DNA of 64,000 nucleotides from Anaerolineales bacterium. GTDB lineage: Bacteria > Chloroflexota > Anaerolineae > Anaerolineales > UBA11858. Shown here one piece after another: positions 9,286-27,598 of the stretch (position 1 is the first letter of the stretch; every line of letters starts with the position of its first letter). The stretch lies in the NCBI GenBank assembly GCA_041686005.1, contig JAWLER010000001.1, forward strand, positions 95,756 through 159,755. Direction: 5' to 3'. The position numbers and the translations under genes were made by a program. The notes beneath the pieces are model-generated. The model saw only the letters and a list, made by a program, of their open reading frames with translations. It did no database searches and was not told the DNA's origin.

Positions 9286-10668
9286 ATGAGCACATTATTG
9301 GTTAAAAACGCGCAAATATTGCTTACCATGGATGACCACCGTCGGGAGATCAAAGGCGGTGGTATTTTCATTAAAGACGGCTTCATCGAAGAGGTGGGTC
9401 CCAGCGCTTCGTTGCCGGATCAGGCGGATGAAGTCCTTGATGTTTCAGGGCATATCGTGCTCCCTGGACTGGTGAACACGCACCACCATTTTTATCAGAC
9501 ATTGACCAGGGTCATCCCAGATGCTCAAGATGTCAATCTCTTCCATTGGTTGAAGACGCTCTATCCCATTTGGGCCAGAATGGGACCGGAGGAAATCAGG
9601 GTGTCCACGAAGACCGCCTTGGCTGAGTTAGCTCTCTCCGGGTGCACGACAGCTTCGGATCACCTCTATCTCTTCCCCAATGGTTCTCGTTTGGATGATG
9701 AAATACAGTCAGCCCAAGAGATCGGCCTGCGATTGCACGCTTCCCGGGGCTCGATGAGTTTAGGGGAGAGCAAAGGGGGGCTTCCGCCGGACAGCGTGGT
9801 GGAGGATGAAGACGAAATCCTGCGCGATTCCCAGCGGGTGATTGAGACATACCATGATCCCGAACCGGGTTCTTTTCTGCAAATTGTGCTCGCACCCTGC
9901 TCGCCCTTCAGCGTCACAGGGGATTTGATGCGGGAAAGCGCTGCCCTGGCTCGAGAATACGGCGTCCGCTTGCATACCCATCTGGCAGAGACAGAAGATG
10001 AGATTGATTTTTGTCTGGAACAATTTGGAAAACGCCCAGTTGCTTACATGGAAGATGTGGGTTGGATGGGGCCGGATGTCTGGTTTGCCCATTCTGTGCA
10101 CATCAATGATGATGAAATGGCAGAGTATGCAAAGCACGACTGCGGCGTCGCTCACTGCCCCGGTTCAAACATGCGCCTGGCGTCCGGTGCGGCTCCCATC
10201 CTCGATATGTTGAAGGCAGGGATCCGGGTGGGCGTCGGGGTCGACGGCTCAGCCAGCAATGATAGTTCGCACATGATCGAAGAGGTCCGGCGGGCCATGC
10301 TATTGGCTCGTTTAAGAGCGGGTATGTTGGGGGCTTCTCGCTCGGGAGAGAATGGCTTGCCGATCATGTCTGCCCGCCAGGCTTTAGAGATCGGGACGCG
10401 GGGCGGCGCGGCTGTCTTAGGCCGTACGGACATCGGTGCTTTGGAGAAGGGGAAAGTGGGAGATTTCATCGCCCTGGATTTGCGGCAGTTGGGGTATGCC
10501 GGCGCGCTGCATGATCCGGTCGCAGCTGTCAATTTCTGTGCTCCGAGCGGTGTTGCCTACAACGTGGTGGGTGGGAAATTCGTCGTCAAGGAAGGCGAGT
10601 TGGTCTCTGTGGATATCAACCAACTCATTGAAACCCACAATCAATTGGCGCAGCAGCTGGTTCGCTGA
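9286..10668 (+). CDS. amidohydrolase of the guanine/8-oxoguanine/cytosine deaminase group (COG0402)
   Basis: PGLVNTHHHFYQTLTR metal-binding motif, HTHLAET, and HCPGSNMRLASG .. GVGVDGSASND. Confidence 0.85.
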   Translation: MSTLLVKNAQILLTMDDHRREIKGGGIFIKDGFIEEVGPSASLPDQADEVLDVSGHIVLPGLVNTHHHFYQTLTRVIPDAQDVNLFHWLKTLYPIWARMGPEEIRVSTKTALAELALSGCTTASDHLYLFPNGSRLDDEIQSAQEIGLRLHASRGSMSLGESKGGLPPDSVVEDEDEILRDSQRVIETYHDPEPGSFLQIVLAPCSPFSVTGDLMRESAALAREYGVRLHTHLAETEDEIDFCLEQFGKRPVAYMEDVGWMGPDVWFAHSVHINDDEMAEYAKHDCGVAHCPGSNMRLASGAAPILDMLKAGIRVGVGVDGSASNDSSHMIEEVRRAMLLARLRAGMLGASRSGENGLPIMSARQALEIGTRGGAAVLGRTDIGALEKGKVGDFIALDLRQLGYAGALHDPVAAVNFCAPSGVAYNVVGGKFVVKEGELVSVDINQLIETHNQLAQQLVR

Positions 10669-10710
10669 GCTGTTTTATAAAGCGTTTATTCAGTATCGTA
10701 CTTTTCAGGA

Positions 10711-12522
10711 GTGTTCACCATGAGCATGAAAACCATTCGTGAACGAACGCAAACGTTAGTGGATGTGGCGATGGGGAGAGCGCCCGCCGATCTGGTGATA
10801 AAGGGGGGGCAGTGGGTGAACGTCCAGTCCGGAGAGATCATCCCTGCCATAGATATCGCTGTCGTCGGAGAGCGGATCGCTTTTGTGGGGGAGAACGCTT
10901 CTCACACCGTGGGCGACGAGACGGAGGTCATCCAAGCTGAGGGCCGTTACTTGGTGCCCGGCTTATTGGATGCCCACATGCACATTGAATCCGGTATGGT
11001 CACCATCACCGAATTCGTCCGCGCGGTGGGTCCCCACGGCACAACGGGCATGTTTGTCGATCCCCATGAGATCGCCAACGTTTTCGGTCTGAAGGGCGTT
11101 CGCTTGATGGCGGAAGAAGCGGAAAAGCAGCCTGTTCATGTCTGGGTACAAGTCCCCTCTTGCGTTCCGTCCGCCCCAGGTTTGGAGACGCCGGGATCCA
11201 GCATCGGCCCGGAAGAAGTCCAGGAAGCCATGTCTTGGGACCGGATTATCGGATTGGGGGAGATGATGAATTTCCCCGGGGTTTTTAACAGTGACCGGAA
11301 AATGCACGATGAAATGGCAGCCACCCGGGCTGCGGGAAAAGTGGTGGGCGGGCATTATGCATCCCCTGATCTGGGATTGCCGTTTCATGGCTATGCGGCA
11401 GGCGGTCCCGAGGATGATCATGAGGGGACCCGGAAGGAAGATGCCCTGGCGCGCGTCAGGCAGGGGATGAAAGCCATGCTGCGCTATGGCTCCGGCTGGT
11501 TGGATGTCGAAGCCCAGATCAAAGCGGTCACAGAAGAAGGGTTGGACCCCCGGCATTTCCTGCTTTGCACAGATGACACCCATTCTGAGACTCTGGTCAA
11601 TGAAGGACATATGGACCGTGTAGTCCGGCACACCATCGACTTGGGTGTGGATCCTCTCACCGTGATCCAGATGGCGACATTGAACACCGCAGAGCACTTT
11701 GGGGTGGCGCGGGATATGGGGCAAATCGCCCCCGGACGCTATGCGGACATCCTTCTGGTGCCGGATTTGAAAGACTTCATTGCCGAGACGGTGATCGCTA
11801 AAGGTCAGGTGATCGCGGAAAATGGGACATGGGCGATCGATTTACCGGAGGTTGAATACCCTCGTTGGGCGACACACTCCGTCAACGTCAAACGCCCTCT
11901 GACCGCGGATGATTTCCGCCTGGAGGTCCCGGAAGAGCTGTCCGGTGCGGAGCTGGAAGCCCATGTCATCGGTGTCATCGAAGGTCAGGCGCCCACAAAA
12001 CATTTGCGGGTCCCTGTCGAAGCGGAAGGTGGCGAAATCAAGGTGGATATCGGGCGTGATTTGGCGAAGATCGCTTTGGTAGAGCGCCACAATGCGACCG
12101 GCGGTGTGCAGGTCGCGCTGGTGCAGGGCTTTGAACTCGGCCCGGATTGCGCCCTCGCCAGCACGGTTGCTCATGACTCCCATCACATGATCGTGGTGGG
12201 GACGGATGAAGATCAGATGGCCCGGGCTGCCAATGAGCTGGTGGACATGCAGGGAGGGCAGGTGGTGGTCAAAGAGGATCAGATCATTGGAAAAGTCCCC
12301 CTGCCCATTGCCGGTTTGATGTCTGATAAACGGGCAGAGGTGGTTGCCGAAGAAGCCGCCTCGGTTTTAGAGGGGTTCCGGGAATGCGGGTGCACGATCA
12401 AGAATCCCAATATGCAGCTCAGCCTTTTAGCTCTGGTGGTCATCCCCGCTTTACGGATTTCGGATTTGGGATTGGTGGATGCCGATGCGTTCAAGCTCAT
12501 CCCAGCAGTTGAAGAAGTATAA
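10711..12522 (+). CDS. ade: adenine deaminase
   Basis: ~600 aa with VPGLLDAHMHIESGM..GTTGMFVDPHEIANV, typical of the Ade family. The true start may be ATG 10720 or 10726 rather than GTG 10711. Confidence 0.85.
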   Translation: MFTMSMKTIRERTQTLVDVAMGRAPADLVIKGGQWVNVQSGEIIPAIDIAVVGERIAFVGENASHTVGDETEVIQAEGRYLVPGLLDAHMHIESGMVTITEFVRAVGPHGTTGMFVDPHEIANVFGLKGVRLMAEEAEKQPVHVWVQVPSCVPSAPGLETPGSSIGPEEVQEAMSWDRIIGLGEMMNFPGVFNSDRKMHDEMAATRAAGKVVGGHYASPDLGLPFHGYAAGGPEDDHEGTRKEDALARVRQGMKAMLRYGSGWLDVEAQIKAVTEEGLDPRHFLLCTDDTHSETLVNEGHMDRVVRHTIDLGVDPLTVIQMATLNTAEHFGVARDMGQIAPGRYADILLVPDLKDFIAETVIAKGQVIAENGTWAIDLPEVEYPRWATHSVNVKRPLTADDFRLEVPEELSGAELEAHVIGVIEGQAPTKHLRVPVEAEGGEIKVDIGRDLAKIALVERHNATGGVQVALVQGFELGPDCALASTVAHDSHHMIVVGTDEDQMARAANELVDMQGGQVVVKEDQIIGKVPLPIAGLMSDKRAEVVAEEAASVLEGFRECGCTIKNPNMQLSLLALVVIPALRISDLGLVDADAFKLIPAVEEV

Positions 12523-12524: not shown

Positions 12525-13262
12525 ATGGGTACACAAGGGGTTTCAGAAACAGTCCAATTGCAGTTGAGTGCCATCATCGCTGAGATGGAAACCGGGGAGC
12601 GGCTTCCCTCGGAACCCAAGCTCGCGAACCAGCTGGGAGTGTCCCGGGCCACCCTTCGGGAGGTGATGAGGACCTTTGAAACGCGGGGCCTGCTGCGCAG
12701 GAAGCAGGGGGTGGGCACGTTTGTGATCCATCCCACCCAGGTTTTCGAAAGCGGCTTGGAGAATTTGGTCAGCTTGGAGACCTTGGCGGAGAGGATTGGG
12801 CTTTCTGTATCCATGGGGGAATTGGAAATAGAACGGGGTTTCCCTGGCGATGAGGAAGCGGAAGCCTTGAACCTGGACCAGGATGTGGACATTGTCCGCG
12901 TCACGAGGGTCATTATGGCGGAGAACCGGCCAGTCGCTTATTTGGTCGATATTTTACCCACCGATATCTTGGCACCGGACGAAATCCCGCCGGATTTCAC
13001 GGGTTCCATTTTGGACTTGCTTTTGGAAAAGAATCAACCTCCCTTAGCGAGCTCCCGCACGGACATCAACGCCACCGGTGCTTCTCCGGAAATCGCCAGT
13101 GCCCTGGATATCCAACGCCATGCCCCCTTGCTGGTGTTTTGCTCTCAGCTCTACTCTACCAGGGGGCGGGTGGTTGATTATTCCTTCAGCTATTTCTTGC
13201 CAGGTTATTTCCGGTTTCACATTGTACGCCATATAGGGAACAGGATTTCAGGTTCCTCCTAG
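12525..13262 (+). CDS. GntR-family transcriptional regulator (HutC-like, probable UTRA effector domain)
   Basis: The wHTH reads LPSEPKLANQLGVSRATLREVMRTFETRGLLRRKQGVGTFV, and the 245-aa length fits the family. Its start is only 2 nt after the adenine deaminase stop, so it is probably co-transcribed. Confidence 0.85.
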   Translation: MGTQGVSETVQLQLSAIIAEMETGERLPSEPKLANQLGVSRATLREVMRTFETRGLLRRKQGVGTFVIHPTQVFESGLENLVSLETLAERIGLSVSMGELEIERGFPGDEEAEALNLDQDVDIVRVTRVIMAENRPVAYLVDILPTDILAPDEIPPDFTGSILDLLLEKNQPPLASSRTDINATGASPEIASALDIQRHAPLLVFCSQLYSTRGRVVDYSFSYFLPGYFRFHIVRHIGNRISGSS

Positions 13263-13334: not shown

Positions 13335-14288
13335 ATGCGAAGTTTTTTGGGACGAGACATTTTATCTTTGAAGGATTTTGAACGACGTGAATTCCAGCGG
13401 GTTTTTGAGGTCGCTGAGGAACTGGCGCCCATCGCCCACAATCGAAAGAACGTTGACCTTCTCCAGGAAAAAACGCTGGTGACGGCTTTCTATCAACCGT
13501 CCACCCGCACTCGCTTGGCGCACGAGTCCGCTATGCTGCGACTGGGTGGAAAAGTGACCGGCTTTGCGGATGCCAGTGTGACCCGGGCGGGGGACTTCTA
13601 CCAGGAGTCCATCAAGGACACGTTTAAGATGTTGGAGCATTACGGGGATGTGATCGTCACCCGGCACTTCCAAAAAGGTGCACCGCACGAAGCCGCCAAA
13701 TGGGTCAGCGTGCCGGTGATCAACGGCGGGGATGGGTGGGGCGAGCATCCCACACAGATTCTGACCGACCTTTATACCATTTACCGGGAAAAAGGGACCA
13801 TCGACGGTTTGAATTGGGTTGCCGTGGGCGACATGCGCATGCGCACCATGCACTCCTTGGGCCACGCCCTGACCCAATTTGACTGCCCCTTGACCTTGAT
13901 TTCGCCGGACGATATGTCCCTCCCTGATGAGTACAGGGAAGACTTCAAAGCGGGTAGCCTGAATTTCACCGAGGGCGGCGATGTCCGTGAGGTGATTGGC
14001 CAAGCGGATGTCATCCTGGTAGAGCCTGTCGTACAACCGGATTACACCAAATCCCGCGACGAACGGAAAGGCGAGGTGGCCCAGACGCCGCCGCAGTTCA
14101 AGATCACCAAGGAATTGCTGGAGACCAAGGCGAAATCTGATGCCATCCTGCTCCACTCACTACCCCGCATGGATGAAATCCCCCCGGATGTGGACCACAC
14201 CCGTTGGTCGCGTTACTGGGAAGAGGGCTTCAACGGCGTGGTCATGCGTATGGCGCTTCTGGCCTTGGTGCTGGGCGCGAAGGAGTAA
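13335..14288 (+). CDS. aspartate-carbamoyltransferase-like transcarbamylase with a divergent second-substrate site
   Basis: Carbamoyl-phosphate motifs STRTR and HPTQ are present, and the HPLPR motif reads HSLPRMDEI. The canonical TRVQKER segment appears as EPVVQPD in a by-eye alignment. Confidence 0.8.
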   Translation: MRSFLGRDILSLKDFERREFQRVFEVAEELAPIAHNRKNVDLLQEKTLVTAFYQPSTRTRLAHESAMLRLGGKVTGFADASVTRAGDFYQESIKDTFKMLEHYGDVIVTRHFQKGAPHEAAKWVSVPVINGGDGWGEHPTQILTDLYTIYREKGTIDGLNWVAVGDMRMRTMHSLGHALTQFDCPLTLISPDDMSLPDEYREDFKAGSLNFTEGGDVREVIGQADVILVEPVVQPDYTKSRDERKGEVAQTPPQFKITKELLETKAKSDAILLHSLPRMDEIPPDVDHTRWSRYWEEGFNGVVMRMALLALVLGAKE

Positions 14289-14393: not shown

Positions 14394-15374
14394 ATGATTA
14401 CGGATTTGAGAAATCGAGATCTGATCAGCGACCTTGATTTCAGTAAAGAAGAAGTGGAAACGGTGCTTGACGTGGCCTGGGATCTGAAGAAGAAGCAGGC
14501 CCTCGGTCAGCCCCACGCTTATTTACGAGATAAGACCCTGGGTATGCTGTTTTTCTTTTCCAGCACGCGAACGAGGTCGTCCTTTGAAGCCGGGATGGCA
14601 CAGTTAGGAGGTCATGCGGCCTTCATCGAAAGCCGCACCACCCAGGTCTCCCATGGGGATACGGAGAAAGAATTGGGTGAAATTTTGGGACGCTACTTTG
14701 ATGGGATTGCCATCCGTCATGTGGATTGGGGGGTTGGCAATAACTACCTTAACAATGTCGCCTCCGCTTCCCGCGTCCCCGTGCTCAACATGCAAGATGA
14801 GTTTTACCATCCCCATCAATGCCTGGCGGATTTGATGACTATCCAGGAAAAGAAAGGGAAGGATTTACGTGGTAAGAAGATCGTCGTTTCCTGGGCCTAT
14901 GCCTCTTCCTACCTGAAACCGATCTCCGTCCCCCAATCGTTAATATTGCAGATGCCTCGCTTCGGGTTGGACGTCACCTTATCCCACCCCCCGGAATTTG
15001 AACTCATGCCGGAGATCATGGAACAGGCCCGGGAACAGGCCGCATTGTTCGACACCAAGTTCGAAGTCGTCCATGATATGAAAGAAGGCTTTGAAGGGGC
15101 GGATATCGTGTATGCCAAGTCCTGGGGCCCGCTGTTGACAACTCGCGATCAGGATGAAGGCAAGCGCATTCAGGACCAGTACAAAGATTGGATCACGGAT
15201 TCGGAGAAGATGGCCCTGGCGGACAAGGATGCCGTTTATATGCATCCCCTTCCTGCGGATCGGGATGTCGAGGTCACCAGCGAAGTGATGGATGGTCCGC
15301 AGTCCGTGGTGTATGATCAAGCTGAGAATCGATTGCATGCTCAAAAAGCTGTCATGGCGTTGACCATGCGTTAG
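14394..15374 (+). CDS. transcarbamylase of unknown specificity (YgeW-like rather than OTC/PTC)
   Basis: STRTR and HPHQCLADL motifs are present, HPLPA replaces HCLP, and there is no DxxxSMG ornithine motif (AKSWGP instead). The block KKIVVSWAYASSYLKPISVPQS resembles what I recall of the E. coli YgeW subfamily. Confidence 0.75.
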   Translation: MITDLRNRDLISDLDFSKEEVETVLDVAWDLKKKQALGQPHAYLRDKTLGMLFFFSSTRTRSSFEAGMAQLGGHAAFIESRTTQVSHGDTEKELGEILGRYFDGIAIRHVDWGVGNNYLNNVASASRVPVLNMQDEFYHPHQCLADLMTIQEKKGKDLRGKKIVVSWAYASSYLKPISVPQSLILQMPRFGLDVTLSHPPEFELMPEIMEQAREQAALFDTKFEVVHDMKEGFEGADIVYAKSWGPLLTTRDQDEGKRIQDQYKDWITDSEKMALADKDAVYMHPLPADRDVEVTSEVMDGPQSVVYDQAENRLHAQKAVMALTMR

Positions 15375-15383: not shown

Positions 15384-16340
15384 ATGAGTGAAGATCGCAA
15401 AGTAGCCGTTGTCGCCATCGGCGGCAACTCATTGATCAAGAGCAAGGACCACCAGACTGTAGAAGATCAGTACCAGGCGGCGAAGGAGACGGCCAAACAC
15501 CTGGTGGACATGATCGAGCAGGGATGGGATATCGCCATCGGGCACGGAAATGGGCCCCAGGTGGGGTTCATCCTCCGCCGCTCGGAGATCGCAGCTCGGG
15601 TGGAAGGCATGCATGAATTGCCGCTGGATGTGTGTGGTGCAGACAGCCAGGGCGCGATTGGCTATGCCTTACAGCAAAACATTCAGAACGAGCTGCAGGA
15701 ACGGGGCATTGACAAGGGGGCAGCCACCGTGATCACCCAGGTCCGGGTGGACCCGGACGATCCAGCCTTCCAAGAACCGTCCAAGCCCATCGGAAGTTTC
15801 ATGGAGGAAGGCGAAGCCCAGCGCAGGGAAAAGGAAGACGGCTGGGATGTGGTCGAAGATGCCGGACGGGGCTGGCGGCGTGTCGTCCCTTCTCCCTTAC
15901 CCCAAGAGATCATGGAGTTGGACGCGGTGAAAGCCTTGATTGAGGCCGGGACCATCACCATCACCGTGGGCGGCGGCGGCATCCCGGTCATTCGCGATGG
16001 GGACGGGGTGAGGGGGACCGCAGCGGTGATTGACAAAGATTTCGCGTCCGGCCTGCTGGCGAACGAAATCAATGCTGATTTGTACTTGATCTCCACCGCA
16101 GTGGAAAAAGTAGCCCTGAATTTCGGGAAACCAAATCAGGAGTGGATCGATACCATGACCGTCGCCGATGCGAAGCGGTACCTGGAGGAAGGCACGCACT
16201 TCGCCAAAGGCTCCATGGAACCGAAGATCAAAGCCATCGTGCGCTTCTTGGAGAGCGGCGGCAAGGAGGCCATCGTCACCAATCCGGAAAATATCGGGCG
16301 GGCGTTAAAGGGAGAGACCGGTACACATATCCTCCCTTAG
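15384..16340 (+). CDS. carbamate kinase
   Basis: VVAIGGNSL .. GHGNGPQVG .. TVGGGGIPV motifs and a length of 318 aa. The start is 9 nt after the transcarbamylase stop. Confidence 0.9.
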   Translation: MSEDRKVAVVAIGGNSLIKSKDHQTVEDQYQAAKETAKHLVDMIEQGWDIAIGHGNGPQVGFILRRSEIAARVEGMHELPLDVCGADSQGAIGYALQQNIQNELQERGIDKGAATVITQVRVDPDDPAFQEPSKPIGSFMEEGEAQRREKEDGWDVVEDAGRGWRRVVPSPLPQEIMELDAVKALIEAGTITITVGGGGIPVIRDGDGVRGTAAVIDKDFASGLLANEINADLYLISTAVEKVALNFGKPNQEWIDTMTVADAKRYLEEGTHFAKGSMEPKIKAIVRFLESGGKEAIVTNPENIGRALKGETGTHILP

Positions 16341-16620
16341 CATAAGAACAGATGCGGTGATAACGCAACGGGTCTTCTTCAGCCAGCATGGTTCTTTGGC
16401 TTATGAAGAGCAGGTATACTACATAGGAAAGGCCGGTCTGTGATCCGCTCGGGGATGAAAGTCAGGAGTAAGGCCGAGGTGCAAGGGAGTGGATGCTGGT
16501 GCGGAAGGTGGTCATCCCCATCGAGAGGGGGTGGGATGTCCATCATCCGTCCCTGGATTTGTGAACCGTGAAGGGGATCACTCCCCAAGACAGGTGCTGT
16601 ATATTGAAAGGAATTCGATC

Positions 16621-17772
16621 ATGAAAAAGTGGCTGAAAGATGAATGGGTGTCGCAATTTGTTGATACCTCACTGCCCATCGTGGCAGCGCTGGGAGCATT
16701 TGCCTTAGGTGCAGTCATGCTCTTATTTTTCAATGTCAATCCTTTTGAAGCATATGGTGCCCTCATCAGGGGTGCATTCGGAAGCTGGAATTCAGTTGCT
16801 GAAACATTGGTGAAAGCGACGCCTTTGTTACTCGTGGGGATAGGGATTTGCATATCTTTCCGGGGGGATGTGATCAACATCGGTGGCGAAGGGCAAATGA
16901 TCGTTGGGGCCATCCTGGGCACCTTTGTGGGATTGAACTTAACCCAATTGCCTGGTTGGTTGGGGATCGTGTTGGCATTTCTCGGTGGATTTGTGGGGGG
17001 CGCTATTTGGGGCGGTATACCAGGCGCCTTAAAAGCCTATTTCAACGTCAATGAGATCCTAAGCACGGTGATGATGAACGCGATTGCCGTTCAATTGATG
17101 AATTTTTTGCTCCGAGGTCCGATGATCGACCCCGCTCAAGCGGAATTGGCCTCCAAGATCCCCCAAACCGCTCGCCTGCAAGACGCCTTCCACTTGCCCC
17201 GTTGGGTACCCACCCGGTTGCATCTCGGGTCGTTGATCGCTGTGGTCCTGGCTATTTTAGTCTACATCCTTTTGTGGCGAACGGTGTTGGGTTATCGCAT
17301 CCGTGCTGTGGGTCAAAGCCCTCATGCTGCTCGGTATGCCGGGATCAAAGTCAAACAGAGTGTGGTTTTAGCGCTTTTGTTGAGTGGAGCTTTTGCGGGT
17401 TTAGCAGGCGTGACCAAAGTCTATGGGGTCAATTATCGTATGATCACAGATGGCTCAGCTTCTGGGTTTACGGGGAGCGCAGGTTTCAACGGTATTGTGG
17501 CCGCCTTGTTCGGTCAGCTTCATCCCATTGGGACCATTCCAGCCTCCATATTATTTGGGGGACTGCTTGTAGGTGCCAATAAAATGCAGCGGGTGATGCA
17601 AATTCCTTCCGCTTTGATCACCGCCCTTAACGGTTTGGTGGTGGTCTTTGTGGTCAGCAGTGAGGTCCTACGTCAAAGGCGACAGCGGCACAGGCTGGCG
17701 GAGAAAATGAAAGAAGTAAGCCAAAATGAGGGGGGTGTGCCAGATGATGACAGCCGGGAGGTGGGAGGATGA
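16621..17772 (+). CDS. ABC transporter permease (BMP/nucleoside-type)
   Basis: Multi-pass permease. I prefer ATG 16621 (MKKWLKDEW..) over the track start 16489, whose N-terminal extension is non-hydrophobic and lies in a probable leader. The stop overlaps the next permease by 4 nt. Confidence 0.8.
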   Translation: MKKWLKDEWVSQFVDTSLPIVAALGAFALGAVMLLFFNVNPFEAYGALIRGAFGSWNSVAETLVKATPLLLVGIGICISFRGDVINIGGEGQMIVGAILGTFVGLNLTQLPGWLGIVLAFLGGFVGGAIWGGIPGALKAYFNVNEILSTVMMNAIAVQLMNFLLRGPMIDPAQAELASKIPQTARLQDAFHLPRWVPTRLHLGSLIAVVLAILVYILLWRTVLGYRIRAVGQSPHAARYAGIKVKQSVVLALLLSGAFAGLAGVTKVYGVNYRMITDGSASGFTGSAGFNGIVAALFGQLHPIGTIPASILFGGLLVGANKMQRVMQIPSALITALNGLVVVFVVSSEVLRQRRQRHRLAEKMKEVSQNEGGVPDDDSREVGG

Positions 17773-18701: not shown

Positions 18702-18807
18702 ATAACTGTGGCCTTCTATAAATAAAAAAGGAGGTGGTGTCCTCTCATGAAAGAAGGCTTAGAATTGGTGGTTGATTTGTAGACTTTAAAGAAAAAAGGA
18801 GAGAAAA

Positions 18808-19812: not shown

Positions 19813-19826
19813 GTTTTCTTGGGGAA

Positions 19827-19856: not shown

Positions 19857-19892
19857 CCCCCTTCCTGTCATACCCGATAGAAAGGATGAGCG

Positions 19893-21449
19893 ATGTCTGA
19901 AGAAAATGTGCTTCCCACAGGTGAAACCCGGATTGACCACATGGAAATGCGATCGATTACCAAACGCTTTCCTGGGGTCTTAGCCAATGATCGGATTGAT
20001 TTCGAGGTCAAATCTGGGGAAGTTCACGCCTTATTAGGGGAAAATGGTGCCGGTAAAAGCACCTTGATGAATGTCCTCTATGGCTTGTATCAGGCTGATG
20101 AAGGCCAGATTTTCCTGAACGGGGAAGAGATCAGGATCCAATCCCCCACAGATGCCATCAAAAACGGGATTGGCATGATCCATCAACATTTCATGCTGGT
20201 GGAGACGTTAACGGTGGCCGAAAATGTGGCTTTGGGTTTGGAATCTTCCCGCAAGCCGCTGACGGACTTAGATCACGTCACAGAACGCGTTTTAGAGCTT
20301 GCCGATGTGTATGGCCTGGAAATGGATCCCGGCGCTTATATTTGGCAATTGTCAGTGGGTCAGCGCCAGCGGGTGGAGATCATGAAAGCGCTCTATCGGG
20401 GGGCTGCATTGCTGATCCTCGATGAACCCACCGCGGTGTTGACACCTCAAGAGGTGGACGAGTTATTCCAAATCATCCGCGAGATGGCGGAAGATGGACA
20501 TGCACTTATCTTTATATCTCATAAATTGCACGAAGTGATCGACATCAGCGATCGCGTCACGGTCTTGCGTGGCGGGCGCAAAGTGGGCACTTACCAAACG
20601 GAAGAGGTCACCAAATCCGATTTGGCGAGGAGGATGGTAGGTCGGGAGGTTATCTTCCGCCCCGACATCGCGGAGGTTGAAGCTGGAGAGGTCCGTTTGG
20701 AGGTCAATCACGTGTCCTGCAAGAGTGACCGGGGCACGCCCGGTTTACGGGAGGTGGACTTGGAAGTCAGATCCGGAGAGATCTTGGGTGTGGCTGGGGT
20801 CTCCGGAAACGGTCAACTTGAGCTGGCGGAGGTCATCACAGGACTGAGGGAGGTTACGGAGGGACGGATCATTTTGGATGGCGAGGATATCACAAGGTAT
20901 CCCCCCATTGAACGAACGGACCGTAAGCTTGCCTACATCCCTGAAGAACGCATGCGGGATGGGATGATCAAAGAGTTTACGGTGGCGGAGAATCTGATCC
21001 TTCGCGAACATCACAGGAAACCCTTTTCCCAATCCGGCTTCCTGAATCTAAAGGCGATCAGGGAAAACAGCGATGAGTTAATTGACAACTATCAGATTAA
21101 AACCCCCTCCAGGGAAACCCTGGCGAAAAGCCTCTCCGGGGGGAATATTCAGAAGGTCGTGGTGGCCCGGGAGCTCTCCCGAAAACCGCGCGTGATCGTG
21201 GCTTCTCAGCCCACCCGTGGGCTTGATGTCGGCGCCACGGAGTACGTTCGGGAACAGTTGCTGTCGCAGCGCAAAGAAGGTACAGCCATCCTGCTTATCT
21301 CAGAGGACCTGGATGAGATCCTGGCCTTGGCGGATCGCATTGCCGTCATCTATGAAGGCCAAATCATGGGCATCGTCCCTGGGGATCAAGCCACCCCGCA
21401 AGAGTTGGGCTTGATGATGGCTGGTGTGAAAGAAAGAGAAAAGGAATAG
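19893..21449 (+). CDS. ABC transporter ATP-binding protein, duplicated ATPase domains
   Basis: Two nucleotide-binding domains: GENGAGKST / LSVGQRQR / LLILDEPT, then GVSGNGQ / LSGGNIQK. Confidence 0.9.
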   Translation: MSEENVLPTGETRIDHMEMRSITKRFPGVLANDRIDFEVKSGEVHALLGENGAGKSTLMNVLYGLYQADEGQIFLNGEEIRIQSPTDAIKNGIGMIHQHFMLVETLTVAENVALGLESSRKPLTDLDHVTERVLELADVYGLEMDPGAYIWQLSVGQRQRVEIMKALYRGAALLILDEPTAVLTPQEVDELFQIIREMAEDGHALIFISHKLHEVIDISDRVTVLRGGRKVGTYQTEEVTKSDLARRMVGREVIFRPDIAEVEAGEVRLEVNHVSCKSDRGTPGLREVDLEVRSGEILGVAGVSGNGQLELAEVITGLREVTEGRIILDGEDITRYPPIERTDRKLAYIPEERMRDGMIKEFTVAENLILREHHRKPFSQSGFLNLKAIRENSDELIDNYQIKTPSRETLAKSLSGGNIQKVVVARELSRKPRVIVASQPTRGLDVGATEYVREQLLSQRKEGTAILLISEDLDEILALADRIAVIYEGQIMGIVPGDQATPQELGLMMAGVKEREKE

Positions 21450-21456: not shown

Positions 21457-22695
21457 ATGCGTAAATTTGTCGGTTACCGGTGCTCGGTGTGCGGAAGGGA
21501 ATACGGCCCCGATGAGGTGACGTATACCTGCCCTAAAGATGATGGGATTTTGGATGTCGTACTGGATTACCCGGCCTTAAGGGAAAAGGCGAAGGGTGAC
21601 CTTATCCTGGGGGAGGAGGCCTCTTTATGGCGGTACCTCCCCCTCTTGCCGGTGGAGGAAAGGATAGGGGAGGGCACTTCCCTCCGGGCGGCAGGTTGGA
21701 CACCGACGTATGCCCCTCCTGTGTTGAAGGAGGAGCTGGGGCTTGCTCAATTGTGGGTCAAAGATGAGAGCCCTAACCCCACAGCTTCCTTCAAAGACCG
21801 GGCCAGCGCGCTTTTGATCGTTCGGGCCCGGGAAATAGGCGCTGACGTGATCGTCACCGCCTCGACGGGAAATGCCGGGGCGGCTTTGGCGGGGATGGCT
21901 GCAGCGGTGGGGCACCGGTCCGTGATCTTCGCCCCCAAAACAGCCCCACCGGCGAAAATCGCCCAGCTGTTGATTTATGGGGCGCAGGTTATCCTGGTGG
22001 ATGACAACTATGACGCAGCCTACCAGTTGTCGCTGGAGGCGACACGGGCGTTCGGCTGGTACAACCGGAATACGGGCTATAACCCTTTCACTGCAGAGGG
22101 AAAGAAAACCGCGGCATTTGAAATTTGGGAAACGGTCATAGAGGAAAACGATTTCGAGCGACCCTTATGCGTTTTCGTCTCTGTGGGGGACGGGAACATC
22201 ATTTCCGGGTTACATAAAGGATTTAAGGACCTCTCTGAAATCGGGAAGCTTGGGCAGATGCCGCGCATTTTTGGCTGCCAGTCCACAGGGTCGGCGGCGA
22301 TCGCCAATGCCTTCCAAAAGGGGACAGAGGAGATCGAGCCCGTGTCCGCGGACACACTGGCGGACAGCATCTCCGTGAATTTACCCAGCGATGGATTGCG
22401 GGCCCTGCGGGCGGCGACGGAAACGGATGGCGCCTACGTGGCTGTTGAAGATCAGGCCATCCTGCAAGCGGTCTCAGATTTGGGCCGGGTGGGGATCTTC
22501 GCTGAGCCAGCCGGAGCGACCTCCTATGCGGGATTGAAAAAAGCCCTTCAGGAGGGCCTGGTTGAAGCCCAGGATCCGATCCTGGTCTTGAACACGGGCA
22601 GCGGATTGAAAGATGTCGATGCCGCGATGGACGCTGCAGGGGAAGCGCCGGTGATCAAGCCCGATTTGGAAGAAGTCAAGAAGCTGCTCGCATAG
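21457..22695 (+). CDS. threonine-synthase-family PLP (fold-type II) enzyme with N-terminal Cys4 zinc ribbon
   Basis: CSVCGREYGPDEVTYTCPKDDG ribbon, SFKDRA PLP-lysine motif, and GNAGAA. It starts 7 nt after the ATPase stop. Confidence 0.75.
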   Translation: MRKFVGYRCSVCGREYGPDEVTYTCPKDDGILDVVLDYPALREKAKGDLILGEEASLWRYLPLLPVEERIGEGTSLRAAGWTPTYAPPVLKEELGLAQLWVKDESPNPTASFKDRASALLIVRAREIGADVIVTASTGNAGAALAGMAAAVGHRSVIFAPKTAPPAKIAQLLIYGAQVILVDDNYDAAYQLSLEATRAFGWYNRNTGYNPFTAEGKKTAAFEIWETVIEENDFERPLCVFVSVGDGNIISGLHKGFKDLSEIGKLGQMPRIFGCQSTGSAAIANAFQKGTEEIEPVSADTLADSISVNLPSDGLRALRAATETDGAYVAVEDQAILQAVSDLGRVGIFAEPAGATSYAGLKKALQEGLVEAQDPILVLNTGSGLKDVDAAMDAAGEAPVIKPDLEEVKKLLA

Positions 22696-22737: not shown

Positions 22738-23694
22738 ATGACCACATACTCGATTATCGCTCCCATATATAACGAAATGGAAAACCTCCCCGTTCTTTAC
22801 CGCCGGGTCGGTGAGGTCATGGCTAAAACGGGGGAAACGTGGGAATTTGTCATGGTGGACGATGGCTCCACGGATGGATCCGTGGAGCGTATCCGGGAGT
22901 TTGCGGAACAGGATGATCGTGTTCGCCCGGTGATCTTCGCCCGCAATTTTGGCCATCAGATCGCGGTCACGGCGGGGTTGGATTACAGCCGGGGGGATGC
23001 TGTGGTGGTGATCGACGCGGACTTGCAGGACCCTCCGGAAGTGATCTTAGACTTAATCGAGAAATGGAAGGAAGGGTATGAGGTGGTTTACGCTGTCCGT
23101 GATAAACGTGAGGGCGAAAGCTGGTTTAAACTGGCTACCGCGGCGGCTTTTTACCGCATCATCCAGCGGATCACGGAGGTCAATATCCCTTTGGACACGG
23201 GCGATTTCCGTCTCCTGGACAGGAAAGTGGTTTCGGTCATGAAGCGGATGCGTGAACGGCACCGCTTTTTGCGGGGGATGTCGGTTTGGGTAGGCTTCAA
23301 GCAGGCCGGTGTGACCTATGAACGTGAAGAACGGTATGCCGGGGAGACCAAATACCCTTTGCGCAAGATGTTGAAATTGGCCAGCGATGCGGTCACCGGT
23401 TTTTCCTATTTTCCCCTTCAGCTTGCGATGGGCCTCGGTTTCACGGCGGCGGGATTGGGGTTGTTGGTGCTGTTGATCCTCATCGCCTTGCGTTTGGCTG
23501 GTTCAGGCGCTTACTCTGGCCAGGCGCTGACCCTGATTGTGGTCTTATTCCTAGGGGGTGTGCAGCTGATGTTTTTGGGGGTCGTGGGGGAGTACATTGG
23601 GCGCATCTATGATGAGGTCAGAGGAAGGCCATTGTACATTGTCCGGGAAGCTCCGGAAGAAAATCAAAGCGAACCTAAGTGGATGGATTTGTAA
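22738..23694 (+). CDS. family-2 glycosyltransferase (polyprenol-phosphate glycosyltransferase, GtrB/Dpm1/ArnC-like) with two C-terminal TM helices
   Basis: [10 protein letters not shown] .. [11 protein letters not shown] .. [10 protein letters not shown] motifs plus a hydrophobic C-terminus. Confidence 0.85.
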
Positions 23695-23722: not shown

Positions 23723-25183
23723 ATGATAGATCTAACTGTCAATGAAGAGCAATTGGAAAGAACCGTCAAACGCGCCCGAGAGCGGGACATCATCATCCCC
23801 ACCTTCGCGCAGATGCGGAATCCGGAATTGATCCCCGATAAAGTAAAAGAGGAATTGAAAGGGATTGGATTGTGGGATATCACCTCGCGGAATTTGTTCC
23901 GCATCACCTGGAAAAACGAGCCCGTGGAACATGGTGGTGGATTTAACGGTGTCAATTATATGGAACTGCCCAAGAGCTTTACAGGTGTGGATGCGCGCAT
24001 CATCTCTTTGGTGGGGAAATGGTTCCCAACCGGTTCCCACAAAGTGGGTGCAACCTTTGGGTGCCTTGTGCCCCGCCTGGTAACGGGCCAGTTTGATCCC
24101 ACCTTCCACCAAGCAGTGTGGCCCTCCACCGGGAATTACTGTCGAGGTGGAGCGTACGATGCCTCCCTTTTGGCTTGTGAGTCGATCGCCATTCTCCCTG
24201 AGGGGATGAGCCAGGAGCGCTTTGATTGGCTGGCCAAGGTGGCGGGGGAAGTGATCGCCACCCCAGGCTCGGAGTCCAACGTCAAAGAGATTTATGATAA
24301 GGTCTGGGAGCTGCGGGAAGAACGTGATAACGTTTTCGTCTTCAATCAGTTTGACGAGTTCGGGAACCACCTCTGGCACTACGATGTCACCGGGAAGGCC
24401 ATGGAGGAGGTCCTGGAACAGGAGATGGGTCCCCACGATAATTACCACGGCGTGGCGCTGACCTCCGGATCCTCGGGGACCATGGGCTGCGGGGATTACA
24501 TGAAGGAGATCTTCCCCACCAGCAGGATCGCGGTAGGTGAAGCTCTGCAGTGCCCGACCTTGATGGAGAACGGGTACGGCGCCCACCGCATTGAGGGCAT
24601 CGGCGATAAGCATGTGCCCTGGATCCACAATGTCAAGAATACAGACATGGTCATCGCCATTGACGATAATGCTGTTGTCAACCTGGCCCGTCTTTTCAAT
24701 GAGCCAGCCGGTCGACAGTATCTGATTGACCAGGGTATCCCTGAAGATCTCGTCTGCCAGTTGGATTTGCTGGGCTTCTCCAGCATTGCCAACGTGCTCA
24801 TGTGCATCAAGTACGCCAAATACTACGAATTAGGTGAGAATGACATCATCCTGACCACCTTCACGGATTCCATGGAACTCTACGAAAGCCGGTTGCGGGA
24901 GATGCACGAGGAGGTCGGGGAATACACAGAAATGGATGCGGCCCGCGATCACGCCCGCTATCTGGAAGGGGTGACCCCCAATTACCTGTTGGATCTGAAC
25001 CACGAGGCCCGGCGCCGGATCCATAACCTGAAGTATTACACCTGGATCGAGCAGCAGGGCAGAGATCTTGAAGAGCTCAATGCCCAGTGGGAAGATGATT
25101 CATATTGGGATGGGTACCACCAGCAAATCGACGACATGGATGAGCTGATCGAGGATTTCAACGACCGGGTCGGTTTGCTCTGA
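23723..25183 (+). CDS. PLP-dependent fold-type II enzyme (lyase/thiolase-like), specificity unknown
   Basis: 486 aa. Candidate PLP-lysine in FPTGSHKVGATFG, plus a TSGSSGTMG glycine-rich phosphate loop. It is longer than cysteine synthase or TrpB. Confidence 0.65.
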   Translation: MIDLTVNEEQLERTVKRARERDIIIPTFAQMRNPELIPDKVKEELKGIGLWDITSRNLFRITWKNEPVEHGGGFNGVNYMELPKSFTGVDARIISLVGKWFPTGSHKVGATFGCLVPRLVTGQFDPTFHQAVWPSTGNYCRGGAYDASLLACESIAILPEGMSQERFDWLAKVAGEVIATPGSESNVKEIYDKVWELREERDNVFVFNQFDEFGNHLWHYDVTGKAMEEVLEQEMGPHDNYHGVALTSGSSGTMGCGDYMKEIFPTSRIAVGEALQCPTLMENGYGAHRIEGIGDKHVPWIHNVKNTDMVIAIDDNAVVNLARLFNEPAGRQYLIDQGIPEDLVCQLDLLGFSSIANVLMCIKYAKYYELGENDIILTTFTDSMELYESRLREMHEEVGEYTEMDAARDHARYLEGVTPNYLLDLNHEARRRIHNLKYYTWIEQQGRDLEELNAQWEDDSYWDGYHQQIDDMDELIEDFNDRVGLL

Positions 25184-25209: not shown

Positions 25210-25252
25210 AACGCCGAATTCGCCGTTCAAGAATTCGGCGTTTTCTTTTCTC
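25210..25252 (+). terminator. rho-independent terminator
   Basis: AACGCCGAATTC-gccgttcaa-GAATTCGGCGTT (12-bp perfect stem) followed by TTCTTTTCTC. It is the first convincing intrinsic terminator I see downstream of 9286. Confidence 0.85.
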
Positions 25253-25404: not shown

Positions 25405-25983
25405 ATGAATGGGGCGTATCTGTCCCCTTCGGCGTTGATTTTAGTGGCCATCATGCCTGATCCCCGAGATTTGCAATATGCGCGCGTTTTGGGCTGGTAT
25501 CGAATCCCGGTCCGCACCGCACCTCGGGTGCTGAATGTCGATTACCTGGCATTTTATCAGCCGGGCACATTTGGTGACCGGAAGTGGCGTGTGGAATATC
25601 TCGCCCCTGTCTTGGGGCATGAGTTGACCACGCGGTTGGACCTGATCAGCGAGGAGCCTGATCATCCCAGGGCCCACGAAGAGTATTTTAAAATCCAACT
25701 AGGGTCCCTTCAGGCATTGCCTCATCCCATCCTGGCCGGCGGTTGGAAGCGTTTCACCTTTTTGTACACCACCGGTGAATACCTGAGGGAAGCGAATCAG
25801 TTAACGGACCTCACCGTGCGTTCCAGCGAGCGTAAAAGGTTGTGGAAAGCGCTCCGGGAGCGGGCCGATCAAGACAGGGCATACAGGGCCAAGGACCCTG
25901 TTGAAGGTCTGTCCCCCGAGGTCCTGGCTGCTTTATTAGGCATTCCATCGGACCTGGATGAGTTCACAACCCAGGGGGATTAA
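25405..25983 (+). CDS. hypothetical protein
   Basis: 192-aa ORF with coding-like composition and no motif I recognise. Confidence 0.5.
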   Translation: MNGAYLSPSALILVAIMPDPRDLQYARVLGWYRIPVRTAPRVLNVDYLAFYQPGTFGDRKWRVEYLAPVLGHELTTRLDLISEEPDHPRAHEEYFKIQLGSLQALPHPILAGGWKRFTFLYTTGEYLREANQLTDLTVRSSERKRLWKALRERADQDRAYRAKDPVEGLSPEVLAALLGIPSDLDEFTTQGD

Positions 25984-26176
25984 ACCAGAACCATTTCTGG
26001 GCCGACGTGGTGGGGCGCTGTCTTTCAAAGAGCCGGGTGGAGAGGGGTAAAAGCCTCCTGCTCCATTCTTTGGTTCCCCAAGATGTGCAGTATAATCCCA
26101 TGGTAGATCGGCTTTTATACCACCTGTGGGTCCTCATGCAGGAGACGAATCGGGGATTGTTTCAAAGGATGAACCT

Positions 26177-27598
26177 ATGGCGAAGATATTGATTAAAAAT
26201 GGGACGTTAATTACCGCAGCGGAGATCTTTGAAGCGGACATCCTCATTGAGGGTGAAAAGATCGTTGCAGTCGGTCAGGGTTTCGATGAGTCGGACTGCC
26301 GCGTGGTGGATGCTGAAGATCTTTTGGTTATGCCGGGGGGGATTGATCCCCACACGCATTTCGACCTGCCTATGTTTGACACGGTTTCCTCGGATGATCA
26401 CTACACCGGTCACAAAGCGGCGGCTTTCGGCGGGACGACGACCGTGATGGATTTCGTGCCTGACGATAGCCCGGATCTGCTTGAAAATGTGGAAGCCTGG
26501 AACGCCAAGGCGGATCCCAAAGCGGCAATTGACTTCGGTTTTCACATGAATATCACCCATTTCAATGAGGAGATCGCGGCCCAAATCCCGGATTTGGTGT
26601 CTGCCGGTATCACGACGCTCAAGGTGTTCACAGCTTATAACGGCCGGCTCCGCCTCCAAGACGGGGAGATTTTCCAGGTCATGCGGATCGCCCGGGACCA
26701 GGGCATGCTGACCATGCTCCATGCTGAAAATGGGGATGTGATTGAAGTCCTGGTGGAGGAGGCTATAGCCGCCGGGCACACCACCCCGGAGTGGCATGCG
26801 CACACCCGACCGGATTGGGGAGCGATGGAATCGGTGCTGCGGGGGGCAGCCTTGTCCGCCCAAGCGGAGGCTCCCCTGTACATCGTCCATATGAACACAG
26901 CGGGCGGGGTGGACCAGCTGCAGTACGCCCGAGACCTGGGTATTTCTGTGATGGGAGAGACATGTCCCCAGTATTTGTTTTTCACGGTGGATCATTTACG
27001 TCGGCCGGATGGGGCGAAATGGGTCTGTTCCCCTCCCATGCGAACGCAAATCGACAATGAGCGGCTCTGGGTGGGTTTAGAGGATGAGCTCATTCAAACC
27101 GTGGGCACGGATCACTGCCCTTTCTTTTACGACGGCACGACGCCCATCGAGTATGAAGGGGAAAAAGTGGCCATCCCTGGAAAAGAGCTCGGTGCAGATG
27201 ATTTCACAAAAATCCCCAATGGGTTGCCTGGCGTGGGGGACCGTATGCCCATTTTGTGGACGGAGGGCGTGGTCAAAGGGGCTTTGACACCCACCCAATT
27301 TGTGGCTCAGATGAGCACCAACACGGCCAAGATCTTCGGTCTATATCCCCGCAAAGGGTCCTTAATGCCCGGTGCGGATGCAGATATCGCGATCTGGGAT
27401 CCGGAGAAAACCCTTACCTACGGCGTCGAGGTCGCCCACCACCGCACGGATTACAATCTTTATGAAGGGTGGGAGTTAAAGGGATATCCTGTAAAAGTCT
27501 TTTTACGGGGGCAGCTGATCGTGGATGGAGAGGAGTGGTTGGGGAAGGCGGGGATGGGTCAGTTCCTGAAACGCAAGCCCGATGCAGAGGTGATCTAG
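26177..27598 (+). CDS. dihydropyrimidinase / D-hydantoinase (cyclic amidohydrolase)
   Basis: GGIDPHTHFDLPMF..GGTTTVMDF, the carboxylated-lysine context TTLKVFTAY, and LHAENGD. I prefer ATG 26177 (MAKILIKNGTL, AAGGA upstream) over the track start 26126. Confidence 0.85.
   Translation: MAKILIKNGTLITAAEIFEADILIEGEKIVAVGQGFDESDCRVVDAEDLLVMPGGIDPHTHFDLPMFDTVSSDDHYTGHKAAAFGGTTTVMDFVPDDSPDLLENVEAWNAKADPKAAIDFGFHMNITHFNEEIAAQIPDLVSAGITTLKVFTAYNGRLRLQDGEIFQVMRIARDQGMLTMLHAENGDVIEVLVEEAIAAGHTTPEWHAHTRPDWGAMESVLRGAALSAQAEAPLYIVHMNTAGGVDQLQYARDLGISVMGETCPQYLFFTVDHLRRPDGAKWVCSPPMRTQIDNERLWVGLEDELIQTVGTDHCPFFYDGTTPIEYEGEKVAIPGKELGADDFTKIPNGLPGVGDRMPILWTEGVVKGALTPTQFVAQMSTNTAKIFGLYPRKGSLMPGADADIAIWDPEKTLTYGVEVAHHRTDYNLYEGWELKGYPVKVFLRGQLIVDGEEWLGKAGMGQFLKRKPDAEVI

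Follow-up and report, generated by a model that had tools for sequence, protein, structure and literature searches.

A conserved gene island in an Anaerolineales genome probably encodes the lower part of a variant pathway for anaerobic urate degradation

Herein, we describe a gene island on a 64,000-nt stretch of DNA from an Anaerolineales bacterium (assembly GCA_041686005.1, contig JAWLER010000001.1, positions 95,756 to 159,755; hereafter the window). The island occupies positions 9286-27598 of the window, lies wholly on the plus strand and encodes two purine deaminases, a GntR/HutC regulator, two transcarbamylases (TC1 and TC2), a carbamate kinase (CK), an ABC importer, two fold-type II pyridoxal phosphate (PLP) enzymes (the ThrC-like ThrCl and the 486-aa PLP486) and a hydantoinase. 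It is probably the substrate-funnelling, ATP-yielding lower part of an Anaerolineae variant of the reductive urate/2,8-dioxopurine pathway. An initial annotation had read the same genes as a purine island of the ygeW/yqeA/hyuA type, in which ureido compounds are phosphorolysed and ATP is formed via carbamate kinase, and motifs and relatives now supply comparative evidence for that reading. It had also stated that the gene set was not known as a described pathway; this no longer holds, because the E. coli and Clostridium pathway was resolved in two 2025 preprints (bioRxiv 10.1101/2025.05.19.654654; 10.1101/2025.04.24.650524), one of which notes a Chloroflexota variant.

In the published route, urate is reduced to 2,8-dioxopurine by XdhD and dearomatised by YgfK, after which SsnA and HyuA open the rings and 2,3-diureidopropionate is formed. 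YgeW phosphorolyses one ureido group, YqeA makes ATP from the resulting carbamoyl phosphate, YgeY hydrolyses the other group, and YgeX turns diaminopropionate into pyruvate and ammonia. Li et al. described Chloroflexota SsnA clusters without XdhD and YgfK and with an F420-dependent luciferase-family reductase, the neighbouring genes being classed by Pfam only. Our literature searches brought up no paper that connects ssnA or hyuA with Chloroflexi, and none that connects ssnA and ygeX with a threonine-synthase-like enzyme.

In the Anaerolineae variant proposed here, the ABC system would import purine bases or nucleosides, and adenine deaminase and 8-oxoguanine deaminase would turn amino-purines into oxopurines, the latter enzyme yielding urate directly. 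An XdhD-type hydroxylase, YgfK or an F420-linked reductase, and SsnA, which are not in the window but are adjacent to the core genes in relatives, would take urate through reduction to 2,8-dioxopurine, dearomatisation and opening of the pyrimidine ring. The HyuA-like hydantoinase would open the remaining ring to give 2,3-diureidopropionate, and TC2 and TC1 would each phosphorolyse one ureido group, with TC1 in the place of E. coli YgeY. The single CK could then make up to two ATP from two carbamoyl phosphates, and the ThrC-like and CysK-like PLP enzymes would jointly do the job of YgeX, converting diaminopropionate or albizziin to pyruvate and ammonia. The five-step route of the initial annotation shared this logic of catabolic phosphorolysis and ATP formation, which the comparisons support, but it omitted the obligatory reduction and dearomatisation steps.

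Relatives were collected with TC2 as the query against one genome per species, which returned more than 596 matches. The best 80 loci, almost all from metagenome-assembled genomes (MAGs) of Anaerolineae/Chloroflexota, were analysed by mapping the window proteins onto them and clustering all of their open reading frames. A metagenome scan with a Chloroflexota SsnA query gave a second set of 13 loci, most of which were too short to inform. These comparisons established gene identities, motif states, synteny and co-localisation; every substrate named for an island enzyme is one that we infer. The core TC1-TC2-CK-ThrCl-(GT2)-PLP486, where GT2 is a glycosyltransferase gene, was conserved across the 80 Anaerolineae loci, so the arrangement is far beyond chance, and the conservation of the neighbourhood that the initial annotation had proposed to check is thus confirmed. 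Upstream of the core, the genes for 8-oxoguanine deaminase (oxoGD), adenine deaminase (ade) and the regulator (gntR) recurred in many loci, and the gene for a 192-aa protein and the hydantoinase gene followed downstream in a subset.

Genes of the upper pathway stand beside the core in several relatives. In 12 loci, a YgeY gene (TIGR03526, 440 bits against a cut-off of 321) stands between gntR and TC1/TC2, and a true SsnA (NF005540, 511 > 444) adjoins the core in two loci, L050 and L072. The latter also carries a YgfK homologue (36% identity, 592 bits), and its order is XDH(FAD/FeS/Mo)-YgeY-TC1-TC2-CK-ThrCl-PLP486-YgfK-SsnA. A three-subunit XDH or an XdhD-like fused protein was present in about 10 loci; the XdhD-like fused FeS-Mo protein adjoins the core in L030 and L050 and was also found in L086, L087, L089 and L093 (SsnA-centred) and in Bacteroidota loci. 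The gene npdG, for an NADPH-dependent F420 reductase (204 bits > 150), lies 3' of PLP486 in L030, L050 and L052, and in these three and L086 it follows PLP486 or precedes the XdhD-like gene. Its presence fits the published remark on an F420-linked reductase in Chloroflexota; no luciferase-like gene turned up in the flanking sequence that had been fetched. The order in L050 is XDH-CK-TC1-TC2-ThrCl-PLP486-npdG-XdhD-like-SsnA-oxoGD, with gaps of at most a few dozen nt from CK on.

TC1 (13335-14288), classified by profile and motif analysis, is an ATCase-like pseudo-ATCase (ATCase, aspartate carbamoyltransferase). When TC1 and 50 orthologues were aligned with E. coli PyrB (n = 51), the carbamoyl-phosphate site was found to be kept (S52, T53, R54, T55, R105, H134, Q137 and R167), and the aspartate site was altered in all 51 sequences: K84 is replaced by Y, R229 and Q231 are replaced with single exceptions, and HPLP has become HSLP. 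The loss of the aspartate-binding motif also appeared in a HMMER alignment to the P. abyssi ATCase (1ML4). The profile scores were split, with a marginal pass for TIGR00670 (257 vs 237) and a fail for NF002032 (225 < 263). Among 1.84 billion cluster representatives, TC1 had only two close ones, beyond which it merges into an ATCase-like set whose 80s loop reads 'TRAGD[FY]Y' and from which RxQxER is missing; canonical ATCases stand lower down the match list. Identity as canonical PyrB was rejected, since RxQxER, K84 and HPLP are all missing. TC1 instead carries the pseudo-ATCase signature, in which STRT and HPTQ are kept, HSLP stands for HPLP, RxQ is absent and the gene context is not that of pyrimidine synthesis. 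Barba et al. described such proteins in 2013, with H[ST]LP/HSLP replacing HPLP and RxQ lost (PMC4016543), and TC1 resembles them further in adjoining a ygeW-type gene, CK and purine genes.

Two of the published pseudo-ATCases bear on the substrate. Rxyl_2847 is a carbamate-kinase-linked, purine-catabolic ureidoglycine carbamoyltransferase (UGTCase) that acts on the diureido acid allantoate (allantoate + Pi <-> ureidoglycine + carbamoyl phosphate), and the pseudo-ATCase of Nocardioides sp. JS614 adjoins a ygeW homologue, xdhABC and hyuA and forms a subgroup separate from UGTCase with no substrate assigned (PMC4016543; the subgroup numbering appears to differ between its text and Table 1). We liken TC1 to the Nocardioides protein by the published motifs and gene context, not by sequence identity. 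The second transcarbamylase that the initial annotation presented as an addition to the E. coli gene set is real, although the pairing of a pseudo-ATCase with ygeW had already been noted in Nocardioides in 2013 (PMC4016543). Two distant pseudo-ATCase relatives, P0246 and P0294, lie in unrelated gene contexts.

Among the 59 loci with sufficient upstream sequence, TC2 was accompanied by TC1 alone in 45, by YgeY alone in seven, by both in five and by neither in two. These counts, together with the intact carbamoyl-phosphate site and the kinship to a transcarbamylase of a diureido acid, suggest that TC1 is the phosphorolytic counterpart of the hydrolase YgeY, acting on 2,3-diureidopropionate or its mono-ureido product and giving a second carbamoyl phosphate and a second ATP. 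Likewise, the alternation with YgeY and the linkage to SsnA and YgfK would favour substrates derived from diureidopropionate rather than the allantoate of UGTCase.

The hydantoinase (dihydropyrimidinase type, 26126-27598) passed the D-hydantoinase model TIGR02033 (510 > 393) and is 38% identical both to E. coli HyuA and to HyuA of a Bacteroidota urate cluster. It is linked downstream of PLP486 in L016, L017, L062 and L075. We propose that it acts on the reduced purine fragment, opening its hydantoin or dihydrouracil ring so that 2,3-diureidopropionate is formed. The enzyme also scored on allantoinase models with 246 bits, below the cut-off of 358, and this leads to an allantoin/allantoate route of the Rubrobacter type, in which the hydantoinase would be an allantoinase, TC1 the ureidoglycine carbamoyltransferase and TC2 an enzyme phosphorolysing an oxalurate-like ureido acid, with CK making ATP and the PLP enzymes taking a glycine-derived remnant. 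We consider this route unlikely: the genes linked in relatives are SsnA, YgfK, XdhD-like, YgeY and the YgeW-type TC2, not uricase, HIU hydrolase or OHCU decarboxylase, and the organisms that bear the island are anaerobic fermenters. The separate subgroup of the ygeW-paired Nocardioides protein (PMC4016543) argues in the same direction.

The pass on the dihydropyrimidinase/D-hydantoinase equivalog would also suit pyrimidine or hydantoin catabolism, in which dihydrouracil, dihydrothymine or 5-substituted hydantoins are opened and ATP is gained when TC1 and TC2 phosphorolyse N-carbamoyl-beta-alanine, N-carbamoyl-beta-aminoisobutyrate or N-carbamoyl amino acids; published work has put forward the hypothesis of a beta-alanine transcarbamylase with a catabolic role. 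Pyrimidine or hydantoin catabolism is hardly probable at all, considering that no dihydropyrimidine dehydrogenase or cytosine/uracil gene is linked, that the linked deaminases are purine-specific, and that SsnA, YgfK and XdhD occur in the relatives. Fold-type II PLP enzymes would not be expected for beta-amino acids either, and the hydantoinase is linked in a subset of loci only, whereas the TC-CK-PLP core is constant.

TC2 (14394-15374), which we class as a compact YgeW-type (YTCase-like) transcarbamylase, found its best E. coli match in YgeW (34% identity, 181 bits vs 137 bits for ArgI). The putative second-substrate residues of YgeW from Shi et al. 2015 (PMC4581275), namely Q160, S200, K203, K270, D334 and E344, are all present in TC2 and invariant in 69 orthologues, with D124->H and C330->P as differences from YgeW. 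TC2 also shares the YgeW-specific segments SWAYAxSYLKPxSVPQ and YAKSWGP. It fell below every NCBIfam cut-off, including those for AOTCase (264 < 288) and ornithine carbamoyltransferase (OTC; 261 < 306 and 247 < 281). Identity as ornithine carbamoyltransferase was rejected, for DxxxSMG and HCLP are absent, AKSWGP and HPLP standing instead, and the OTC models failed. On this sequence evidence, that is, the E. coli match, the shared segments and the kept pocket on one side and the missing helices (see below) and low model scores on the other, TC2 is best described as a compact relative of YgeW, not an orthologue by the curated definition. Its proposed role is the phosphorolysis of diureidopropionate or a ureido amino acid to carbamoyl phosphate.

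CK (15384-16340) starts 9 nt after TC2, is 51% identical to E. coli YqeA and passed two carbamate kinase models (NF009007, 409 > 266; TIGR00746, 385 > 358). Carbamate kinase converts carbamoyl phosphate and ADP to ATP and carbamate. Could the kinase instead supply carbamoyl phosphate for biosynthesis, as in Pyrococcus? In such a cluster, TC1 would be PyrB, TC2 would be ArgF or an acyl-ornithine transcarbamylase, ThrCl a threonine synthase and PLP486 a cysteine synthase, and the adjacent deaminases would be incidental. TC1 and ThrCl do pass TIGR00670 and TIGR00260, TC2 and PLP486 are unusually conserved (75-96% identity), and a paper on Thermoflexus hugenholtzii, a cultured Chloroflexota relative, suggests that carbamate kinase may replace carbamoyl-phosphate synthase (PMC8129789). 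We nevertheless judge this explanation very unlikely. TC1 lacks K84, R229, Q231 and HPLP in the 51 sequences (apart from the single exceptions at R229/Q231), TC2 has the YgeW pocket in place of the OTC motifs, and ThrCl lacks the NPYR Arg of threonine synthase. No pyr, arg, hom or thrB gene lies nearby, the regulator is of the HutC type, YgeY, SsnA, YgfK and XDH share operons with the core in relatives, and the PLP pair accompanies urate genes in Bacteroidota. In T. hugenholtzii, the 'OTC' adjoins carbamate kinase and a second OTC lies elsewhere (PMC8129789); a Thermoflexales locus carrying the core is among our relatives (L008). The point at which the initial annotation could have been overturned, namely that the transcarbamylases might be biosynthetic, is thus answered by the motif alignments: neither is a canonical PyrB or ArgF.

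ThrCl (21457-22695) has an N-terminal CxxC...C zinc-ribbon and passed TIGR00260 only marginally (173 > 167), scoring below the cut-off for PRK08197 (254 < 303). The Arg of the NPYR motif, which binds phosphate in threonine synthase (Thermus enzyme), is T or M in all 36 aligned sequences. This motif and the context, in which hom and thrB are absent, speak against a canonical threonine synthase. PLP486 (23723-25183) matched PALP with 47 bits and is a divergent CysK/CBS-fold protein with the Lys in GSHKVGA and extra N- and C-terminal helical parts; its structure model (pLDDT 73, pTM 0.81) found cysteine synthases as the top PDB folds at about 22% identity. There was no match to NF040741, and identity as OrtB was rejected. 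Members of the CysK fold act on beta-substituted alanines, and the modelled cysteine-synthase/CBS fold would suit compounds of this class. We therefore propose a beta-elimination or beta-replacement on the beta-substituted alanine remnant (2,3-diaminopropionate or albizziin) as the role of PLP486.

The two PLP enzymes were always paired, in Chloroflexota as well as in Bacteroidota urate clusters without YgeX, and neither the window nor the 80 loci yielded a YgeX homologue. PLP486 is 75-90% identical across Anaerolineae and 56% identical to Bacteroidota orthologues. In L095, a low-GC locus from the metagenome scan, a PLP486 orthologue (56%) and a ThrCl orthologue (40%) stand beside XdhD-like, SsnA, HyuA, YgfK and MocA genes, and a search with the L095 protein revealed that the PLP486 family is widespread in Bacteroidales and Marinilabiliales. 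Three annotated Bacteroidota contigs have, in this order, MocA, YgfK, an AsnC regulator, the PLP486 counterpart PLP490, ThrCl, XdhD-like and SsnA. In two, HyuA, YgeW (67% identical to the E. coli protein) and YgeY come next, and YgeX is again absent. The PLP pair is the only non-orthologous element of this otherwise canonical Bacteroidota cluster and occupies the YgeX slot. From the sequences, we propose that ThrCl and PLP486 replace the diaminopropionate ammonia-lyase YgeX. The pair is like YgeX/DpaL in belonging to the fold-type II PLP superfamily and in taking the same cluster slot, that of the amino-acid remnant step; it is unlike YgeX/DpaL in that there is no orthology and two genes stand for one, the match between ThrCl and YgeX being local only (32% over 68 aa).

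A second role for the pair has to be weighed, namely that of an accessory to the XdhD-like hydroxylase in sulfur or selenium delivery or in cofactor maturation, with diaminopropionate left to an unlinked enzyme. Sulfide and selenide chemistry is known from CysK-fold enzymes. The Bacteroidota order is PLP490-ThrCl-XdhD, with a 6-nt gap in L095, only npdG separates the PLP pair from the XdhD-like gene in L030 and L050, and many pathway members were first annotated as 'selenium metabolism-linked'. This explanation has a slim chance of being right, considering that in the window and in most Anaerolineae loci the pair follows CK with no XDH nearby, that every E. coli pathway enzyme except YgeX has its counterpart in the Bacteroidota clusters, and that the E. 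coli maturation genes yqeB, yqeC and mocA come from unrelated families.

The deaminases linked in the island are purine-specific. The first gene of the island (9286-10668), a COG0402 amidohydrolase, scored 684 bits on the 8-oxoguanine deaminase model NF006055 (cut-off 532), with 595 bits to PDB 3HPA and 559 bits to 7WW2 ('8-oxoguanine deaminase'); urate is the product of the known reaction of this family. Identity as SsnA was rejected for this gene, the two COG0402 proteins of the window scoring 150 (this gene) and 223 bits on the SsnA model, whose cut-off is 444. An oxoGD orthologue adjoins SsnA in L050 and L093. Adenine deaminase (10711-12522; TIGR01178, 502 > 472), which converts adenine to hypoxanthine, lies upstream of the core in many relatives. 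Adenine and adenosine were the only components of its medium that T. hugenholtzii consumed (PMC8129789). Downstream of the ABC transporter, L003, L005, L010, L014, L025 and L036 carry a further adenine deaminase paralogue (35% identity to the first copy; TIGR01178, 508 > 472), which in several of them directly precedes XDH subunit genes. About 5 kb upstream of the island, beside a YfcE-type phosphodiesterase, a 660-aa protein (2594-4579, minus strand) makes a third deaminase of nucleobase/nucleoside type: its first ~440 residues form a TRZ/ATZ-family amidohydrolase (MTA/SAH- or 5'-deoxyadenosine-deaminase-like) below all equivalog cut-offs, and its C-terminal ~220 residues had no Pfam match.

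The BMP/PnrA-type importer (16489-21449; PF02608 Bmp) consists of two permeases (16489-17772 and 17769-18701), a binding protein (18808-19812) and a duplicated ATPase (19893-21449). Its nearest solved relatives are 3S99 and AtzT (6PI5), and its cargo is presumed to be a purine base or nucleoside. It is a variable insert, since two different BMP-type transporters hold the position after CK among relatives. GT2 (22738-23694), a polyprenyl-phosphate glycosyltransferase-like protein resembling PgfS/ArnC, is wedged between the two PLP genes and is probably a passenger with no obvious role in purine catabolism. Among the 48 loci with sufficient downstream sequence, it was found in 13, only in closer relatives of the window, and it is absent between the PLP genes in L008, L026, L030, L040-42, L050, L072 and Bacteroidota. 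The 192-aa protein (25405-25983) had no Pfam or NCBIfam match. Its orthologue precedes the hydantoinase gene or follows PLP486 in eight Anaerolineae loci and so travels with the hydantoinase. A Bacteroidota gene of ~207 aa at the equivalent place, between SsnA and HyuA, was rejected as its counterpart, the two being not homologous.

All open reading frames that the initial annotation had listed were recovered on the plus strand, its family assignments hold in the family scans, and its tight junctions (2 nt between ade and gntR, 9 nt between TC2 and CK, an overlap of 4 nt between the permeases and 7 nt between the ATPase and ThrCl genes) were borne out. In the public gene call the hydantoinase begins at 26177, and it does not overlap folP, whose start lies at 27622. 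The regulator (12525-13262) combines PF00392 with a UTRA effector domain (PF07702), and its position before TC1 is conserved in relatives. Upstream of oxoGD, within 9193-9251, two copies of an operator-like GntR-type palindrome, ATTGTC(W)GACAA (9194-9205 and 9239-9250), bracket a sigma-70-like promoter (TTGACA at 9206, a 17-nt spacer and TACACT ending at 9234). The palindrome gave four strand-matches vs 0.53 expected by chance, with no copy elsewhere in the 64-kb window; in the other intergenic gaps of the island the operator was not found, the best match, before TC1, having 4/13 mismatches. It recurred in 27 related loci (among them L001, L004, L010, L014, L019, L034 and L036), just upstream of oxoGD or ade in most, and it lies upstream of PLP486 in two (L017:4650 and L055:14301). 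The palindrome is a conserved operator candidate, presumably bound by the HutC-type regulator, and its occurrence both before oxoGD/ade and before PLP486 suggests a shared regulon.

A strong terminator had been placed at 25210, and the hairpin can be read directly in the sequence: a perfect 12-bp stem (25210-25221/25231-25242) with a 9-nt loop and a T-rich tail, TTCTTTTCT, the whole element spanning 25210-25251 on the plus strand. The automatic scan missed it because its loop limit was 8 nt, and it found no comparable terminator between 9286 and 25183, which fits a single 16-kb transcript. The HutC-type regulator probably controls one long transcript from the promoter near 9206 to the terminator at 25210. 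When the window was scanned with Rfam, the island gave no hit to a purine riboswitch or to any other riboswitch class; the hits, a TPP riboswitch and one tRNA, lie outside it.

Several observations weigh against assigning the island to the urate pathway. XDH, XdhD, YgfK, an F420 reductase, SsnA and YgeY were found neither in the 64-kb window nor in the 10 kb past its 3' end, where only housekeeping genes lie; homologue queries thus bear out the earlier remark that no molybdo/seleno oxidoreductase or YgeY-type peptidase is present in the window, and the island alone would therefore be an incomplete pathway. TC2 scored far below the YgeW models (192 < 453 and 182 < 500 for NF005538/TIGR03316), has 326 aa against ~396 aa in YgeW, lacks in the alignment the extra N- and C-terminal helices and the two 240s-loop helices, and carries HPLP instead of H[AVC]LP. 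TC1 and YgeY occur together in five loci and are therefore not strict alternatives. The conservation of TC2 and PLP486 across the class is more typical of core metabolism. Two PLP enzymes are present where E. coli uses one, and in Bacteroidota and L030/L050 the pair adjoins the XdhD-like gene, which would suit a role tied to that enzyme. Finally, the preprints disagree on the ureido group removed by YgeW, its product being 3-amino-2-ureidopropanoate in Liu et al. and albizziin (3-ureido-2-aminopropionate) in Li et al., and this bears on which step TC1 and TC2 each take. With these points counted, we still hold the lower urate pathway to be the probable function. The fuller claim of a rewired Chloroflexota pathway, in which both ureido groups are phosphorolysed with TC1 standing in for YgeY, the ATP yield is doubled and a two-enzyme PLP module, also found in Bacteroidota, replaces YgeX, is offered tentatively, as possible but doubtful.

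The rest of the window holds several other features. A SurE 5'/3'-nucleotidase (32086-32892, plus strand) is encoded some kb 3' of the island, behind folP, htpG and an MFS exporter gene; a part in nucleotide scavenging is conceivable for it, and no conserved linkage was seen. A 2032-aa bacterial alpha-2-macroglobulin-like protein with MG2, bait region, A2M and bMG10 domains is encoded at 38058-44156 (plus strand). On the minus strand, a thiamine pyrophosphate (TPP) riboswitch (52135-52240, 69.5 bits) stands upstream of genes for thiamine pyrophosphokinase, an ABC binding protein and a permease (51440-52078, 50338-51510 and 48558-50312), probably a thiamine salvage/uptake operon, and a tRNA gene follows at 48409-48481.

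Not until 2025 was anaerobic purine/urate degradation resolved, and then for E. coli and Clostridia alone; the removal of urate in the gut lends it medical interest. If the assignment is right, Anaerolineae, which are abundant environmental fermenters in sludge, sediments and digesters, have a version of the pathway that is assembled from other parts. Many Bacteroidota also carry the PLP module. The assignment would give a first function to the Nocardioides-type pseudo-ATCases, which are orphan ATCase paralogues, and to a large, highly conserved orphan PLP family as part of a new PLP module for beta-substituted alanines, and it would describe a catabolic route that conserves energy from both ureido groups. 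The alternative parts would be candidates for engineering urate-degrading probiotics. Across thousands of MAGs, moreover, such genes systematically bear the names 'aspartate carbamoyltransferase', 'ornithine carbamoyltransferase', 'threonine synthase' and 'cysteine synthase', which the assignment would correct.

Compared with known systems, the island is a lineage-specific variant of a now-known pathway, not a new kind of system. It shares with the arginine and agmatine deiminase pathways the conversion of a ureido compound to ATP through a catabolic transcarbamylase (OTCase/PTCase) and carbamate kinase; unlike them, it has no deiminase or antiporter, the OTC/PTC substrate motifs are missing from TC1 and TC2 alike, and the genes around them belong to purine catabolism. 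With the E. coli urate cluster (xdhD-ygfK-ssnA-hyuA-ygeW-ygeY-ygeX-yqeA), it has in common a YqeA-like CK, a HyuA-type hydantoinase and a YgeW-type transcarbamylase beside the kinase, and, as in the E. coli and Clostridium clusters, purine deaminases and an importer lie alongside and the logic runs from ureido phosphorolysis to ATP. It differs from the E. coli cluster in that neither the reductive upper half nor YgeY is found in the window, an additional transcarbamylase derived from ATCase is present, YgeX appears to be replaced, and the regulator is of the GntR/HutC type rather than the sigma-54 type of YgeV. The features that look new are thus the pseudo-ATCase as a putative second catabolic transcarbamylase, the compact YgeW-type enzyme, and the two-PLP module that would replace YgeX in two phyla.

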